64,000 nt of DNA. Origin: Promethearchaeota archaeon (lineage in GTDB: Archaea > Asgardarchaeota > Lokiarchaeia > Sigyniarchaeales > SOKP01). The translations under genes were made by a program, and so were the position numbers. The notes beneath the pieces were generated by a model, which had not been told where the DNA came from, did no database searches, and saw only the letters and a list, made by a program, of their open reading frames with translations. Location: positions 32,001 to 96,000 of the forward strand of contig JBHLMQ010000009.1 in assembly GCA_048938005.1 (NCBI GenBank). Direction: 5' to 3'. Shown here piece by piece: positions 23,614-63,014 of this stretch (position 1 is the stretch's first letter; each line of letters opens with the position of its first letter).

Positions 23614-24492
23614 TTATTTTTTATAAAAAGAACTTATAATTTCAGCTGCATTGCTTTCAATTCCAAATTTCTTTCGAAAATAATTACAGATATTTGTAAT
23701 ATCTCTTTCTAAAAGTGAATTAGCATTTGGATGATCAATTGGGACCCATTGCAGCCAATCAATTATTAAAATGTTTCCCTTTTCATCTAAAACAATATTA
23801 AATTCCCCTAAATCTCCGTGTATCATACTCGCTTCTTGATAGATTATTTTCAGTTGTTTAATAATTCTATTAAAAATTTTCATGGGCTTTTTAATACTTT
23901 TATAATAAACCAATTCTTTCCCTCTCAGGTATGACATTATAATGATGTGTCTGTTGTATCCTATGGGATTTGGAGTGTTTAAATTGAGTTTATATATTTT
24001 CTCAAGAGCTTCATATTCCTTTCTAGCAGCAAGTCTATTTACATAAAGCCAAGAAAGATGCCCTCTTTCTCCTATAAGATCTCGAAATTTTTTTATATTC
24101 TTAAAGCTAGTTCTCCCCATTCGGTAGAATTTAGCAGCGTGAATGTTTCCTTCATCATCCATGCAGCTATATACGTCTGATTCTTTCCCTTTTCCTATTA
24201 GAGGTCCTAATTGACTGATTATGTTTTTTTCAACTAGAGTATGAAGTGCAAGAAGATCATAAGCTTTAGAATTAAGGGTGTATGCAATTTCATATTTAGA
24301 TGCGTCTCTAATTATTAAATCAAGTTTGTGAACTTTTTTTAGCCGAAAAAGAGTTTCTTCCATCTTATATCTTGAATAAAACTTAATATTACTCACTGTG
24401 ACATATTCTGATCTCTTCATACCAATTTCAATTGCCATAAGTATCCTAAGATCTTCCTTATCCAATCTAGTGAGTAAGTTTGCTACTTCCAC
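23614..24492 (-). CDS. rio2: RIO2 atypical Ser/Thr kinase with N-terminal wHTH
   Basis: EDLRILMAIEIGMKRSEYV, GKGKESDVY, KFYRMGRTSF, IHGDLGEFNI, IIDWLQ. Confidence 0.92.
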   Translation of the reverse strand: MEVANLLTRLDKEDLRILMAIEIGMKRSEYVTVSNIKFYSRYKMEETLFRLKKVHKLDLIIRDASKYEIAYTLNSKAYDLLALHTLVEKNIISQLGPLIGKGKESDVYSCMDDEGNIHAAKFYRMGRTSFKNIKKFRDLIGERGHLSWLYVNRLAARKEYEALEKIYKLNLNTPNPIGYNRHIIIMSYLRGKELVYYKSIKKPMKIFNRIIKQLKIIYQEASMIHGDLGEFNIVLDEKGNILIIDWLQWVPIDHPNANSLLERDITNICNYFRKKFGIESNAAEIISSFYKK

Positions 24493-24503
24493 ATTTTTTT
24501 CAG

Positions 24504-25286
24504 CTAAAAAAGGAATTTTCTATAGGTTTTGAAAAATGATATTAGTTTATATATATTTGGTATTTCAAAAATCAGAATTGCAGCTAAAATTAAAACCAAG
24601 AAGATGAATATATCTTTCTGTAATATCAAATAGTTAGTTAAAGTCCAACCTTCTTGAAATAAAAATAAAAAAGTACCTTGGTTTAAATATAATAATATTC
24701 CTATTGAGATAATTAATCCATTTAGGGAAAATATTATAACTTGATGTTCATTCTCAATTATTCCAATTATTATATTTATGGAAAATAAAATTAATGTAAT
24801 TATAGTGAATATTTTGGAATTCTTAATCCAGGTATCGTACATTATATTATTTATTTGATAGTTTCCATTAGATACCGACCAAGCTAAAGATGTGCTTAAA
24901 TTTAAAAATGATAAAATTGGTAAAATTACAGTAGCAATTATAGAAATACTGTAAATCCTTATAGTTGTAAATCTACTGAATTTTAAGACTTTATTATTTC
25001 CCAATTTTATGGATTCTAATAAAGATTCAAGTTTATTTTGAATCTCTATTGGGAAATTTTCTTTAGCCATGAAAAACTGGATGTTTAACTCAGGAAAGCT
25101 AGAAATTAGCTCTTTTACTTGGCTATAACCTTTCCTGAATTTTGCTTTTTTACTTTTCGGACCACTCCAAAGATAAATGATTTCTTTTTCTTCATCCAAA
25201 ATTGCACAAATGTCATGTGATAATAGACGATGCTCTTCTTCGATCCAATGAGATTTAGACTCATCAAATATGAAAATTCTTAGCAT
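24504..25286 (-). CDS. gelsolin-like domain fused to four transmembrane helices
   Basis: LLSHDICAILDEEKEIIYLWSGPKS matches the gelsolin L.S.D.xxLD...IYxWxG..S core; four hydrophobic segments follow in aa ~108-252. Confidence 0.65.
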   Translation of the reverse strand: MLRIFIFDESKSHWIEEEHRLLSHDICAILDEEKEIIYLWSGPKSKKAKFRKGYSQVKELISSFPELNIQFFMAKENFPIEIQNKLESLLESIKLGNNKVLKFSRFTTIRIYSISIIATVILPILSFLNLSTSLAWSVSNGNYQINNIMYDTWIKNSKIFTIITLILFSINIIIGIIENEHQVIIFSLNGLIISIGILLYLNQGTFLFLFQEGWTLTNYLILQKDIFIFLVLILAAILIFEIPNIYKLISFFKTYRKFLF

Positions 25287-25403: not shown

Positions 25404-26306
25404 TTAATCTTGACTTTTTATTCTTCTTTTTATTTCTGCCCACATATCATCAATATAGGATTTATACACTTCAATTTCTTGTTGGGTCATTTGACTAAAT
25501 CTTTTTTGAGCTTTAAGATATTCTTCAATAGGTTTACGCTTTGAGGGGTCCAAATATCTACTACTAGGTTTCGATAATTTTAATATTCCATTTTCAACTT
25601 CATATAAAATCCAGAAGCCAGTTTGTACAGCTAAGCGACCAATTAATATCGTATCTTTAGGTTCATATCCCCATCCCGGCGGACAAGGAGATAATATGTG
25701 AAAGTATTTCGATCCATGAATAGTTCTTGCTTTTTTAAATTTATCGTACAAATCTAAAGGATAAGAGGCAATAGCTGTCGCGACATAAGGAATTCCATGA
25801 GCCTCTAAAATTTTTGGCATATTTTTTTTATGACCTAGTTTACCTTCAGGAGTCGTTGTTGTTTTAACTCCTAATGGTGTTGAACCACTGCGTTGAACGC
25901 CTGTATTCATATATGCCTCATTGTCATAGCAAGCATAGATAAAATTCGTTCCTCTTTCAGCAGCTCCACTTAAGGCTTGAATTCCTATATCTGTCGTACC
26001 ACCATCTCCTGCAAAGGCAAGAACAGTAATTTCATTCTCTAAACCTTTATCTTCTAATGATGCCAGAATACCAGATGCGGAGGCGCCTGTTGTCGCAAAA
26101 GGTGTATGGTAAACACTTATTTTTGTCGAGCAAAATCCCTGCATACCATGTAAAACTGTTAAACAAGATGCTGGCACTGTTATTAATGTTTTAGCTCCTA
26201 AAGCTTTTAAAGCAATTCTATAAATCAATGCCATACCACATCCCGCACACGCACGAGTGCCTGGATAAATAAATTCCTCTTCAGGAAGATCCATAACATT
26301 TACCAT
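25404..26306 (-). CDS. porB: 2-oxoacid:ferredoxin oxidoreductase beta subunit (pyruvate/ketoisovalerate type)
   Basis: ACAGCG, GDGGTTDIG, YDNEAYMNTGVQRS, SPCPPGW. Confidence 0.92.
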   Translation of the reverse strand: MVNVMDLPEEEFIYPGTRACAGCGMALIYRIALKALGAKTLITVPASCLTVLHGMQGFCSTKISVYHTPFATTGASASGILASLEDKGLENEITVLAFAGDGGTTDIGIQALSGAAERGTNFIYACYDNEAYMNTGVQRSGSTPLGVKTTTTPEGKLGHKKNMPKILEAHGIPYVATAIASYPLDLYDKFKKARTIHGSKYFHILSPCPPGWGYEPKDTILIGRLAVQTGFWILYEVENGILKLSKPSSRYLDPSKRKPIEEYLKAQKRFSQMTQQEIEVYKSYIDDMWAEIKRRIKSQD

Positions 26307-26312
26307 TATTTC

Positions 26313-27605
26313 TCACCCTCTTTTAAAATAAGTAGATTCATCATAATCACTCAATTCATCTAATCTTAAACCTAAAAATTCTGTTTTATTAGTTAATATT
26401 CCTTGTTTAAACTCATCTAAAGCCCTATGAACACCAGTAATGATATGTTCGGTTTTAACATCTCTACCACCTAATCCTACAATAAAACCCTTAATATTCG
26501 GTCTATTTTTTAAACTATAAAGCGCAGCTTTTAATTCATAAGATAAAACGCCTTCATATCCATATCCAATATCTCGATCAAATACTATAATATTTTCTTT
26601 ATCTTTGAAAAATTCCCTCAATTCTTTATACGGATATGGTCTAAATAATTTAAGGCTTACAATTCCTATTTTTAAACCTTCTGATCTTAGTTTTTTAATC
26701 GCAACTCTGGCTTGAGAAGAAACTGAACCCATCGCAAAAATGATTGTGTCAGCATCCTCAGTTTGGACTGTTTTATATATTCCATCTCCATAAGATCTTC
26801 CAAATTTTCTGGCAAATTCATCATGAACTCCTTTAATTATTTCAATTGAATTTTCTAACGATTTTTGAAGTGCGTATCTATATTCATAATAACCCGGAGC
26901 TATTCCTTCTGCTCGTTTAACAATGTGAGGGGTGGTTACTGGATCTATTCCTTTTACTTGTGAAATGTCGGATAAATTAATATGGTGATTAAGAGGTGGT
27001 AAAAATTCATCAATTTTATCTTGGTTTTCTAATTTAACTGGCATCATAGTATGACTTAATATATATCCATCATACGCAACTATTGCAGGAAGAAATACAC
27101 GAGGATCTTCTGCTATTTTAAATGCTTGAAGATTTGTGTCATAGATTTCTTGATTATTTTCACACATAAACTGAATCCAACCAACATCTCTTATTGTAAT
27201 GAAATCAGAATGATCAGTCCAGACTGACCAAGGTGCTCCAAGTGATCGAGTTGCAAGATTGATTATTATAGGTAATCTATTTCCTGCTGCCCATGGTAGC
27301 ATTTCATACATCAATTCTAAACCATGAGCAGATGTTGCAGTGCCCACTCTTGATCCGGTCGCAGAAGCAGCACAACATACAGCTAAAGCTGAATGTTCAG
27401 ATTCGACTTTAACAAACCTAGCTTTTAACTTTCCTTCTGCTATAAATTCTGCGATTTTTTCTACTACAGGACTTTGAGGTGTTATTGGATAAGCGGAAAT
27501 GACACCCACCTTTGCCTGTCTAAAAGCATGTGCAGCTGCATGATTTCCTGTTAGAATCATTATATTTTTGTCAATACTTGATTTTTTTTCTTGAATCACA
27601 GTCAT
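26313..27605 (-). CDS. porA: 2-oxoacid:ferredoxin oxidoreductase alpha subunit
   Basis: AYPITPQ, VESEHSA, TATSAHGL, DGYILSH, GLGGRDV. Confidence 0.92.
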   Translation of the reverse strand: MTVIQEKKSSIDKNIMILTGNHAAAHAFRQAKVGVISAYPITPQSPVVEKIAEFIAEGKLKARFVKVESEHSALAVCCAASATGSRVGTATSAHGLELMYEMLPWAAGNRLPIIINLATRSLGAPWSVWTDHSDFITIRDVGWIQFMCENNQEIYDTNLQAFKIAEDPRVFLPAIVAYDGYILSHTMMPVKLENQDKIDEFLPPLNHHINLSDISQVKGIDPVTTPHIVKRAEGIAPGYYEYRYALQKSLENSIEIIKGVHDEFARKFGRSYGDGIYKTVQTEDADTIIFAMGSVSSQARVAIKKLRSEGLKIGIVSLKLFRPYPYKELREFFKDKENIIVFDRDIGYGYEGVLSYELKAALYSLKNRPNIKGFIVGLGGRDVKTEHIITGVHRALDEFKQGILTNKTEFLGLRLDELSDYDESTYFKRG

Positions 27606-58682: not shown

Positions 58683-59657
58683 TTAGATTTCAAATATGTT
58701 ACCAGTATTATAGATTGTATTATCTAAATCGAGTATTATCTGCCCACCCGATGCTATTTCTACAGCATAATTTATCCCTTCTAAAACTCTATTCATCATG
58801 AATTCATAAGCGGTAAAACAATCTTCAAGCTGTGGCATATGATTCTCCGCATAACATTGAGAGATTGCAGGAATTAATTCCGGAATGAAATCTTGGCTAA
58901 TCATCATCTCCTCTGCATCAATATCAGTTTCTTTTGCTAGTGTAAAAGGATTGTACACATCCATTTGTGCAAACATCACTCTACAAACAAATAGAGAAGC
59001 CTTGATTTCTTTCATTATAAATTTAATCCTATTTTTATCATCAAGAAATTTCTTAAAAGTGATAGCATTGATGATATCTTCATTAGTTATCGTATCTGAA
59101 GTATCCATTAATTCACTTACTCTTTCTGACATCCTTTTTGAAGATAACATTAGTCTAAGATTCATCTCATTTTTTTTATAATAATCCTCGTAAAAAGCAG
59201 AAAGAAATGTATGGCCACCAAGATTCATTCGGTCTTCAGAGAGGTCTAATTTATAATTCATTCGCTTAAATTTATCCATAAAGTTTTTAATGATTAAAAA
59301 TTTTAATTTTAATCGATGTAAAGCAAAAAATAAGCATAATCTTGTCTTAGTATATGCTTCTACATTTCCCATTCTAAATCGATCGTGATGTTCCCTTGCA
59401 TACATCACCACAGGCTTCAATTTACTAACTACAACTTCTATGAAATATTCAATGATATGTTCAAGGGGGCGGCACTCTAATACATGAAATTTCTCTATTA
59501 ATTTTTGGCTTGTTGGTTGACTTTGGGGTAATTCCTTAATATCATCATAATTGTAATATTCAAGAAATAGGGAAGTCAACGCCTCCATTTCTAATACTGT
59601 TCGACAGGGAATAAAAACCTTATTTAAATCATATAATATTGTTCCGCTTTCTGGCAT
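58683..59657 (-). CDS. hypothetical protein divergent from actin
   Basis: 324-aa ORF; predicted helical, Met-rich; no motif recognised. Confidence 0.7.
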   Translation of the reverse strand: MPESGTILYDLNKVFIPCRTVLEMEALTSLFLEYYNYDDIKELPQSQPTSQKLIEKFHVLECRPLEHIIEYFIEVVVSKLKPVVMYAREHHDRFRMGNVEAYTKTRLCLFFALHRLKLKFLIIKNFMDKFKRMNYKLDLSEDRMNLGGHTFLSAFYEDYYKKNEMNLRLMLSSKRMSERVSELMDTSDTITNEDIINAITFKKFLDDKNRIKFIMKEIKASLFVCRVMFAQMDVYNPFTLAKETDIDAEEMMISQDFIPELIPAISQCYAENHMPQLEDCFTAYEFMMNRVLEGINYAVEIASGGQIILDLDNTIYNTGNIFEI

Positions 59658-60268: not shown

Positions 60269-61414
60269 ATGGCAGAGGAAGAAAGCTTTTTAAACGCAAA
60301 AGCCCTGGTTGTTGACAATGGTACCGGAATCTCCAAGAATGGTTTTGCTGGTGAGGATCAACCAAGGTCAGTTTTCCCTACACTAATTGGATACCCCAAG
60401 TATGAAAGCATCATGACAGATGTTGAGCACTATACTCGGGAATACTATATTGGTGAGGAAGCTATGCAATTAAAAGGCGTTTTAAAGTTAATGTTCCCTG
60501 TTGAGCATGGTATCATTGAAGACTGGACTGCTATGGAGAAAATTTGGCACTATACTTTTTATACTGACTTGCGCATCGATCCAAGTGAACATCCAGTTCT
60601 TTTGACGGAAGCACCATTAAATCCACGTCCAAACCGTGAAAAAATGGCTGAAATTATGTTCGAGACATTCAATACACCTGCTCTTTATGTAGCAATGCAA
60701 GCAGTATTGAGTCTTTACGCTTCTGGTCGTACTACAGGGTGTGTTATAGATATTGGTGATGGAGTTTCCCACGTTGTACCAATCTTCGAGGGTTTCGCTT
60801 TAAGCCATGCTATTCAGAGAATCGATCTTGCAGGCCGAGACATTACAACATATTTACAGAGACTTCTTCGACAAAAGGGGTATTCTTTCACAACATCTGC
60901 AGAAAAAGAAATTGTTCGAGACATCAAGGAGAAATTATGCTATGTAGCAATCGATCCTGAAAAAGAAATGATGCTTTCCAAGAAAGTTGCCGGGATGGAA
61001 AAAAGCTACATGCTTCCTGATGGTGAAACTATAAATGTTGGTGTCGAAAGATTCCTAGCTCCTGAATGTTTCTTTAATCCAAGTGTAATCGGTAAAGAAT
61101 TAGAGCCGTTAGACGATGTAATTGTAAGCGCTATTTCAGAATGCGACGTTGATCTTCGAAGAGACTTGTATAGTAATATTGTTCTTTCCGGTGGCTCCAC
61201 AATGTTTCCTGGTATTAAGGAACGATTAACTAAAGAAATTAAGGAGCAAATTCCTGAAAGCGTTGATGTGAAGATTATCGCGCCACCAGAGCGTATGTAT
61301 TCTGTATGGATTGGTGGTTCAATTTTAAGCTCTCTGAAAACGTTTCATAGAATGTGGGTTACTAGGAGAGAATATAAAGAGATGGGGCCACAAGTCATCC
61401 ACCGATGCTTCTAA
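60269..61414 (+). CDS. actin (lokiactin/Asgard actin)
   Basis: [107 protein letters not shown]. Confidence 0.97.
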
Positions 61415-61571: not shown

Positions 61572-63014
61572 ATGGAATTACATCCGGATAATATTATAGA
61601 AAATTTGGATCAAATTGGGAGGAAGGAAGGGTTAGTTCTTTTAAGAGAATGGATTGATAGTTCCAGTGAACAAATTTTACGTCAAAAAGCGTTAGAATAT
61701 TATGGATCTATTGATACTGGTAAGAATTTTAAATTTTTTGAACATTTGTTTCTTTCTGATGAAAATCTCAATTTAAGACTAATTGCAGGGCAAATATTAA
61801 AAGAAAAATATTGGGATAATAAGAAACTTATATCTTTGTTAGAGTATACATTAAGAAAAGTTGATAATATAAAACAACGGCTTTTTGCAGTGAAAACATT
61901 CGCCTCAATAGATAATGTAAAAACACGAAAATTGATAGTAGAATATCTGAAGGAATTAATTAAAAAAGAGTTTAAAGATAAAGTCAAAGAATTCCCAAAA
62001 GAAATTTATACTTTTAATTATAATGAAACCATCCCTGGATTATTTCTTGATATCTGTATTAACTTACTTTTATATACACATTATACAAATAAATGTGGAT
62101 ATCATGTTACTGTGAGAAAAGGAAAAATTATATCTCTAAATTGTGAGAGTTCTAATTTAGGCAGATTTTCTGAAATTACGGAACTTAACAGTTTAAAAAA
62201 TTTGGAACATCTTCAGTTGGAGCGAAATAAAATTAATAATATCGATGGGATTCAAATTTTAGAAAAATTACGAACATTAGATTTATCTCATAATAAATTA
62301 GTTAAAATTGAAAATTTGGAAAGTTTAACAAATTTAGAAGAATTAAATTTAGCAAATAATGAGATTCGAAGAATAGATGGTTTGGATTCTTTAAAAAAAC
62401 TAAAAAAGTTATCTTTGAACGATAATATACTTGAAGATATTGACAATCTCACTCATTTAACTAATTTGGAAGAATTAAATTTAAGTCATAATGCAATTTC
62501 AGATATTAAAAATTTGGATAATTTAAGTCAATTAATAAGGCTAAATCTTTCCTTTAATCAGATCGAGAAGATCACCGGGATTAAAAGTCTAAAAAATCTT
62601 CAATGGTTATATATTAATGATAACAAAATTAACCAAATCGAAGAATTATCTACTCTTCATAAACTAAAAGGATTGTACCTTTCAAATAATCTAATAGTAA
62701 AAATTGAGGGGCTTGAAAACTTAATAAATTTAAGAAAATTAGAACTATCTAATAATAAAATTACAAGAATAGGTGGTTTGAGAGCTCTAAATAATTTACA
62801 GGAGTTATATTTAGATAACAACAATATAAAGGAATTTGAAGGATTGGAGAATTTAACTGATCTAATTATGCTACATCTTGGTAGAAATGAAATAACAAAA
62901 TTTAGAAATGAAAATATTGATTGTTTGAAAAATTTGAATTTTTTATTCTTAAATGAAAATCCGTTAGATCAAAAGAGTTGGGAACAATTCAAGAAAAGAT
63001 TTAAGTATCCCTAA
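61572..63014 (+). CDS. HEAT-like N-terminus plus SDS22-type leucine-rich repeat protein
   Basis: About 12 tandem 22-aa LxxLxxLxLxxNxIxxIxxLxx repeats (aa ~208-465); helical-repeat N-terminus (LRQKALE, LRLIAGQIL, QRLFAVKTF). Confidence 0.9.
   Translation: MELHPDNIIENLDQIGRKEGLVLLREWIDSSSEQILRQKALEYYGSIDTGKNFKFFEHLFLSDENLNLRLIAGQILKEKYWDNKKLISLLEYTLRKVDNIKQRLFAVKTFASIDNVKTRKLIVEYLKELIKKEFKDKVKEFPKEIYTFNYNETIPGLFLDICINLLLYTHYTNKCGYHVTVRKGKIISLNCESSNLGRFSEITELNSLKNLEHLQLERNKINNIDGIQILEKLRTLDLSHNKLVKIENLESLTNLEELNLANNEIRRIDGLDSLKKLKKLSLNDNILEDIDNLTHLTNLEELNLSHNAISDIKNLDNLSQLIRLNLSFNQIEKITGIKSLKNLQWLYINDNKINQIEELSTLHKLKGLYLSNNLIVKIEGLENLINLRKLELSNNKITRIGGLRALNNLQELYLDNNNIKEFEGLENLTDLIMLHLGRNEITKFRNENIDCLKNLNFLFLNENPLDQKSWEQFKKRFKYP

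Follow-up and report, generated by a model that had tools for sequence, protein, structure and literature searches.

A gelsolin-homology domain joined to a four-helix membrane module in a protein family of Promethearchaeota

Three architectures have been described for the gelsolins of Asgard archaea, namely ProGel, 1DGelX and 2DGel (text of PMC7444086 and PMC9433394), and the single-domain forms were reported to bind and regulate actin (text of PMC7444086). According to the same text, ProGel was crystallised on actin although its affinity for rabbit actin was very low (Kd 337 uM), and the Thor 1DGelX bound actin at 7.7 uM and severed filaments. In a cultured Lokiarchaeon, actin filaments were found at the cell periphery, under the membrane and along protrusions (text of PMC9834061), and the actin co-immunoprecipitation carried out in a cultured Lokiarchaeon under-represents membrane proteins, as its authors state in the preprint text (bioRxiv 10.1101/2025.11.30.690169). 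The word 'transmembrane' is absent from the main texts of PMC7444086, PMC9433394 and PMC13716822, and the preprint has it a single time, in that statement on co-immunoprecipitation. A search of the literature, at the level of main texts, for gelsolin together with a transmembrane segment or membrane anchor in Asgard archaea, Lokiarchaeota or Lokiactin did not find the architecture presented below. The Loki '1DGelX' counts given in PMC7444086 and PMC9433394 refer to supplementary lists and could include the present family.

Attachment of actin to the membrane is needed for the protrusions and the crawling of cultured Asgard strains, and a conserved membrane protein carrying a gelsolin head is a concrete candidate gene for such attachment in archaea. 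Here, a gene of this kind is compared with the described Asgard gelsolins with respect to fold, predicted topology, distribution and possible actin binding.

The gene and its N-terminal gelsolin-homology domain

The window, that is the whole stretch of DNA analysed, comprises 64,000 nucleotides of a Promethearchaeota archaeon (contig JBHLMQ010000009.1, positions 32,001 to 96,000). The gene under study, the gene that follows it and the actin gene of the window are located as follows.

24504..25286, minus strand: gelsolin-domain/four-TM protein gene (P0001), identified by its open reading frame and translation, 260 aa plus stop, ATG start
23614..24492, minus strand: Rio2 kinase gene, starting 11 nt downstream (Pfam RIO1 E 4.8e-49, Rio2_N E 2.4e-19)
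60269..61414, plus strand: actin gene (lokiactin-type), presumed partner, 35 kb away (Pfam Actin E 6.3e-133)

The open reading frame of P0001 proved to be exactly as drawn in the first-pass annotation, which had also placed its end 11 nt before rio2; the gap indeed spans 24493-24503. The peptide LLSHDICAILDEEKEIIYLWSGPKSKKAKFRKGYSQVKEL corresponds to residues 21-60 of the 260-aa translation. A word-index protein search at E<=1e-3 returned 161 homologs. With few exceptions these are 259-261 aa long, and every named one is a 'hypothetical protein' from an Asgard metagenome bin. When 1.84 billion cluster representatives were searched exhaustively with HMMER, 73 relatives were obtained, and the distant members, which are 270-320 aa long and only 16-30% identical, still aligned over almost the whole length. 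The genome under study carries only one copy of the gene, and across the phylum 140 of the 400 genomes surveyed contain an uninterrupted reading frame. Among sequencing runs searched for expression of the gene, none of RNA was listed, which says nothing either way about its transcription. These data establish that the gene is real and that its homolog set lies far beyond chance. Two of the relatives, P0121 (384 aa) and P0128 (310 aa), carry long low-complexity K/E-rich C-terminal extensions beyond the fourth transmembrane (TM) helix.

The N-terminal third of the protein was assigned to the following feature.

25005..25286, minus strand: gelsolin-homology domain, aa 1-94, predicted cytoplasmic (AlphaFold2 model, Foldseek, VIA-align and profile matches)

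The AlphaFold2 model constructed from a 27-sequence alignment (pLDDT 83.2) shows five strands in this domain (residues 2-8, 13-16, 26-31, 36-41 and 70-73), a long main helix (47-62) and a second helix (80-94). Comparison with the PDB using Foldseek gave 7c2f_B, a chain of the Thor ProGel structure, as the best match (E 1.2e-4, target TM 0.70, 21% identity); among the 37 matches listed it is the only one at E<=0.001, and all 37 are gelsolin, villin, adseverin, CapG, severin or fragmin domains. VIA-align, which is independent of Foldseek, superposed 7c2f_D on model residues 1-87 with Z 10.6 and an rmsd of 2.5 A over 84/88 residues. With 7c2f as the best entry by both methods, the N-terminal gelsolin domain put forward in the first-pass annotation withstood the test of its fold.

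The sequence profiles led to the same group of proteins. A search of all PDB sequences with the 27-member profile again returned 7c2f_B first (E 0.0023); villin, gelsolin, adseverin and CapG came next at E 0.03-2.5, with three RbcX chains (E 0.07-0.5) mixed among these lower matches. The Pfam Gelsolin family was matched by 15 of the 27 members at E<=1 (best 1.3e-4). P0001 itself had no Pfam Gelsolin match, its Pfam search as a 260-aa protein giving chance-level matches only (Rrn7_cyclin_C, E 0.045; DUF6915, E 0.21), and it was also missed when the genome was searched with PF00626, which picked up three other genes. The curated cut-off of PF00626 is 21 bits; ProGel-like proteins likewise remained under it (18.9 and 17.7 bits), and GelX-like proteins passed it (41.6 and 34.9 bits). 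The ProGel-like set consists of short ORFs of 92-111 aa that were touched by the family profile in genomes of another family in the phylum. Alignment of the family profile using hhalign gave 95.1% and E 3.2e-8 against the ProGel-like ORF alignment, and 84.1% and E 7.4e-6 against the Pfam-positive GelX-like proteins. The query thus lacks a Pfam match of its own, yet the evidence at the level of the family, from profiles as well as from the fold, consistently indicates gelsolin.

Analysis of an alignment of 47 sequences, which reaches down to 16% identity, revealed that only D25 and G42 are invariant and that both lie in the gelsolin core. G42 is present in 47/47 sequences, W40 in 38/47 (Y in 8) and D31 in 39/47, so that the W-x-G signature and the upstream Asp are kept; D31 is a candidate, by its place in the sequence, for the 'D' of the 'DWG' signature. 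The W-x-G or 'DWG' gelsolin signature is named in the text of PMC9433394 and PMC7444086. Residues E16, H24 and Y38 are conserved in at least 90% of the 47 sequences. Taken together, the N-terminal 94 residues share fold and homology with the Asgard gelsolins.

The same genome (G000) carries further gelsolin genes on contigs C48, C8 and C75 (loci L082-L085). They encode a two-domain gelsolin of 335 aa with a Cys-rich C-terminal end, as well as a pair of soluble GelX-like proteins, 196 and 277 aa in length; these have a conserved C-terminal 'SSSTYDELCWL' block in common.

The membrane module and its predicted topology

The part of the protein that follows the gelsolin-homology domain was divided on the basis of the AlphaFold2 model, hydropathy and charge; the sides of the membrane given below are predicted.

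24975..25004, minus strand: basic linker, aa 95-104 (pLDDT <50 for residues 96-104; mean K+R 2.5)
24882..24974, minus strand: TM helix 1, aa 105-135 (AlphaFold2 and hydropathy)
24849..24881, minus strand: predicted outer loop 1, aa 136-146, a short beta-hairpin (AlphaFold2; mean K+R 0.3)
24753..24848, minus strand: TM helix 2, aa 147-178, the N-terminal part of which extends beyond the hydrophobic core (AlphaFold2 and hydropathy)
24747..24752, minus strand: predicted cytoplasmic turn, aa 179-180 (E178-x-E180 motif)
24684..24746, minus strand: TM helix 3, aa 181-201 (AlphaFold2 and hydropathy; Y200 in at least 90% of the 47 sequences)
24621..24683, minus strand: predicted outer loop 2, aa 202-222, the most conserved stretch among close members
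24507..24620, minus strand: TM helix 4 and predicted cytoplasmic basic C-terminal tail, aa 223-260 (AlphaFold2)

The AlphaFold2 model contains long helices at residues 105-135, 147-178, 181-201 and 223-259, with short beta-hairpins in two of the connecting loops. Kyte-Doolittle averages over 19-residue windows reached 1.6 or more in six overlapping runs, which were merged by hand into four groups (106-138, 156-180, 181-210 and 216-252) with maxima of 1.98, 2.74, 2.41 and 2.62, while the maximum within the N-terminal domain is only 0.57. The four TM segments that had been noted from the sequence are accordingly matched by four hydrophobic groups and four modelled helices, and the loop that had been noted after the first of them was modelled as a short beta-hairpin.

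Positively charged residues are concentrated before TM1 and at the C-terminus. The mean number of K+R is 2.5 in the linker, 2.0 at the start of TM1 and 3.6 in the C-terminal tail, where D+E is 0, against 0.3 in loop 1 and 0.4 in loop 2. By the positive-inside rule this distribution predicts an N-in/C-in orientation with the gelsolin head in the cytoplasm, about ten residues from TM1; the prediction is drawn from the charge bias only, and it agrees with the N-in topology on which the earlier proposal had depended. At the turn between TM2 and TM3, E178 and E180 are invariant in the close subfamily (n=27), and K/R pairs are found there in distant members.

The first-pass annotation had considered the membrane part as an anchor for the gelsolin domain. 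Its location in the membrane is supported by hydropathy and model, and the restriction to anchoring is questionable, since head and module show equal conservation. Among close members the mean column conservation of loop 2 (202-222) is 0.78 as against 0.66 for the head, and F208, F210 and Q211 are invariant in all 27. On account of this conservation the membrane module is probably more than a plain anchor. Comparison of the module with known structures brought up nothing more specific than generic helical bundles and de novo designs (top Z 14.8, 13.6 and 13.0), a range that is common for bundles, and the assignment to a known family was given up. The HMMER matches inspected from the 1.84 billion representatives could be classed as family members of full length, as fragments or as apparent chimeras (P0133, P0155 and P0186), and no other family with the same membrane module stood out among them; the ESM Atlas returned the family's own cluster only. 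Neither set of matches included a recognisable relative of the bundle from outside the gelsolin/four-TM family.

The layout is retained in distant homologs. The 32 distant members aligned comprise those of the f3 and f4 loci (families defined in the next section) and unassigned representatives. A 281-aa homolog from family f3, modelled with this 32-sequence alignment of its own, showed a gelsolin head and four long helices (AlphaFold2, pLDDT 88.9), and its best Foldseek match was again 7c2f_B (E 6.2e-5, TMt 0.75). Many of the 32 have an extra charged tail of roughly 35 residues, predicted to be cytoplasmic. A tail motif, (K/R)P(S/T)IL(R/Q)D...V.LKEI, was identified at loci L031-L035 of family f3, and its core (K/R)P(S/T)IL(R/Q)D occurs in 14/32 distant sequences; the motif is absent from the window protein, and in the distant homologs it may serve as an additional site of binding.

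Distribution, actin and gene order

The survey of distribution covered 400 genomes of the phylum, 140 of which had a match. In family f1, to which the genome under study belongs, full-length matches were found in 111/134 genomes. In family f3 of the same order, 12/14 genomes had matches in ORFs of 286-326 aa (E 1e-13 to 1e-29); among those listed seven are near full-length and five are partial, covering the query to about residue 168-208. Matches in family f4 were weak (3/4 genomes); at L036, the one f4 locus examined, the gene codes for a protein of 252 aa in which both the head and hydrophobic segments are present. The fused layout is thus conserved across three families (f1, f3 and f4) of one order, and none of the matches listed outside these three was full-length. 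Three more families had matches in 12 of 89 genomes; among these, family f31 (12 listed genomes) accounted for at least nine, which cover the gelsolin part only and lie in free ORFs of 93-169 aa. In family f16 a single genome of 22 contained an odd partial ORF that was regarded as a chimera, and the other families among the 400 genomes gave no match. This odd ORF, of 378 aa at locus L037 (G058:C98, 1826-2962, minus strand), in which a partial gelsolin head and TM1 (residues ~34-132) are joined in frame to a region of ~10 TM segments, was set aside; it comes from a genome of a different family and is probably an assembly chimera or contamination.

Closed genomes within this order also contain homologs. 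Among the 134 f1 genomes, 23 gave no match for the gene. Three of the 23 belong to one genus and are 98-100% complete; the actin search covered two of the three, and both carry actin. Such a patchy distribution, with near-complete genomes in which the gene was not found, excludes a role as a universal or general Asgard actin anchor.

The actin of the window is extremely conserved, with protein identities of 98-100% across several f1 genera and 84-93% across the order (best matches listed). Beside it, a leucine-rich-repeat protein is encoded directly downstream (61572-63014, plus strand; LRR_4 E 3.5e-45), and a 324-aa ORF just upstream (58683-59657, minus strand) has no Pfam family at E<=0.001.

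We consider the best explanation to be that P0001 is an integral membrane protein whose cytoplasmic gelsolin head would bind lokiactin at the inner face of the membrane, a reading by analogy that we regard as about evenly balanced between right and wrong. The single gelsolin-homology domain of 94 residues would be held at the cytoplasmic face by the linker of ~10 residues, with the remainder of the protein forming a family-specific four-TM bundle in the N-in/C-in orientation. The head would bind a lokiactin monomer, or the end or side of a filament, at the inner membrane surface, and this binding could lead to attachment or local regulation of cortical and protrusion actin, and the outer loops of the module, which are conserved, may make contacts on the outside of the cell or inside the membrane itself. 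Since ProGel alone binds weakly, a single domain of this type may need avidity, for example through oligomerisation in the membrane.

An extension of this explanation, which seems unlikely to us on the present evidence, is an integrin-like coupler in which the outer loops would engage the surface layer, the substrate or a neighbour cell and the head would grip lokiactin. If correct, it would provide a link from the outside to the cytoskeleton for adhesion, for anchoring of protrusions and for the recently reported crawling motility, and the gelsolin superfamily would gain its first integral-membrane member.

Co-folding of the window actin (12-row alignment) with residues 1-100 scored 0.00 in two runs made without controls, a score that speaks neither for nor against binding. 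At four main-helix positions (49, 50, 53 and 54 of the ProGel-like proteins) the hydrophobic residues of ProGel-like proteins are replaced by polar or charged ones in the gelsolin/four-TM family (mean hydropathy -3.0, -2.5, -2.6 and -1.3); the positions were compared by hydropathy and may or may not belong to the actin contacts of ProGel. The polar residues at these positions weaken the case for actin binding. In its favour, the basic main helix resembles that of the Pfam-positive GelX-like proteins, whose characterised Thor representative binds actin.

This loss of hydrophobic positions is also what would be expected if the gelsolin fold served here as an interaction or regulatory module for something other than actin, the core of the protein being the four-helix bundle as a receptor, scaffold subunit or assembly factor. 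The gelsolin-like domain of Sec23 is an example of the fold without actin binding. The greater conservation of the membrane module and outer loop 2 among close members points in the same direction, as does a gene that is patchy though actin is near-universal. Against it, the only invariant residues across the wider family are those of the gelsolin core, the nearest proteins by both sequence and fold are the actin-binding gelsolins of Asgard archaea and not Sec23/24, and among the generic and designed bundles that resemble the membrane module no receptor or transporter family stands out. We therefore regard this reading as a serious competitor that is nonetheless clearly less probable than lokiactin binding. 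Were it correct, a gelsolin fold would have been put to another use in the closest relatives of eukaryotes.

It was also considered that the main helix, through its basic face, and the basic linker rest against inner-leaflet lipids, so that the protein would sense or shape the membrane and would not bind actin. The mean net charge of the main helix (44-63) is +2.6, the domain is only about ten residues away from TM1, and eukaryotic gelsolin is regulated by acidic lipids (text of PMC6080781). However, the corresponding helices of the GelX-like and ProGel-like proteins are equally or more basic (+4.3), and the basic main helix of the family resembles that of the Pfam-positive GelX-like proteins. 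The charge thus cannot separate a lipid-binding from an actin-binding helix. This reading is judged to be rather improbable.

Gene order was analysed around the homologs of both families. In f1 the order is OFOR alpha, OFOR beta, the gelsolin/four-TM gene, Rio2, methyltransferase, LSm and phosphoesterase, and it is kept in 3/3 loci from other genera, minus the LSm gene in one of them. The two genes upstream of P0001 in the window (25404-27605, minus strand) look like a 2-oxoacid:ferredoxin oxidoreductase; the beta subunit was identified by Pfam as TPP_enzyme_C, and the other is presumably the alpha subunit from our reading of its sequence. The spacing of 11 nt suggests that the gelsolin/four-TM gene and the Rio2 gene are probably co-transcribed. 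A joint function with the Rio2 kinase, such as its recruitment to the membrane with the gelsolin likeness being incidental, is very improbable and was rejected, because Rio2, adjacent in all three f1 loci from other genera, is missing within about 5 kb in 5/5 f3 loci, so that the linkage is a lineage-specific gene order.

The genes flanking the homolog in the three f3 loci scanned code for TFIIB (2), an Eco57I-type methylase (2) and a HEAT-repeat protein (1). The Eco57I-type methylase lies directly downstream of the homolog at L031 (1553-4714) and L033 (2442-4940), both among the f3 loci scanned, and an Eco57I-type DNA methylase is also encoded in the window 3 kb downstream of P0001 (19433-21529, minus strand); this proximity may be a faint trace of a shared ancestral gene order. 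In the f1 and f3 loci examined there was no conserved neighbour related to actin and no neighbour that suggested a function.

Comparison with known systems

The closest described system is the Thorarchaeota ProGel (PDB 7C2F; text of PMC7444086), which has a single gelsolin/cofilin-type domain of ~90 residues with the IYLW-x-G core in common and is the best structural and sequence match of the gelsolin/four-TM head. ProGel differs in being free and soluble with ~90 residues, while here 160 further residues form four TM helices; a protein of 260 aa does not fit a class that consists of the domain alone (about 88-111 aa). In addition, D25, which is invariant in the gelsolin/four-TM family, is K/R in the ProGel-like proteins.

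[quoted passage not shown] Domain X of the Thor protein is predicted to be coiled-coil and the protein was purified (text of PMC7444086), and domain X of 1DGelX is called disordered in the text of bioRxiv 10.1101/2025.11.30.690169, whereas the corresponding part here is strongly hydrophobic and predicted to span the membrane. With the GelX-like set standing in for the Thor 1DGelX, the hhalign alignment to the family covers residues 24-79 only and reveals no homology to domain X.

Gelsolin, villin, adseverin, CapG, severin and fragmin of eukaryotes share the domain fold and gave weak profile matches. Eukaryotic proteins of this superfamily contain three to six repeats, and to our knowledge none of them is an integral membrane protein. 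We know of no membrane-embedded gelsolin architecture in eukaryotes, and if P0001 binds actin, its architecture would be new to the superfamily relative to eukaryotes.

Membrane-to-actin linkers of other folds are known, such as RodZ-MreB in bacteria and the ERM proteins and talin/integrin in eukaryotes. The likeness to these is a functional analogy only, namely that a membrane protein presents a cytoplasmic domain to a filament of the actin family, and the folds are unrelated. By fold and homology P0001 stands with the described Asgard gelsolins, as an integral-membrane form of their single-domain members.
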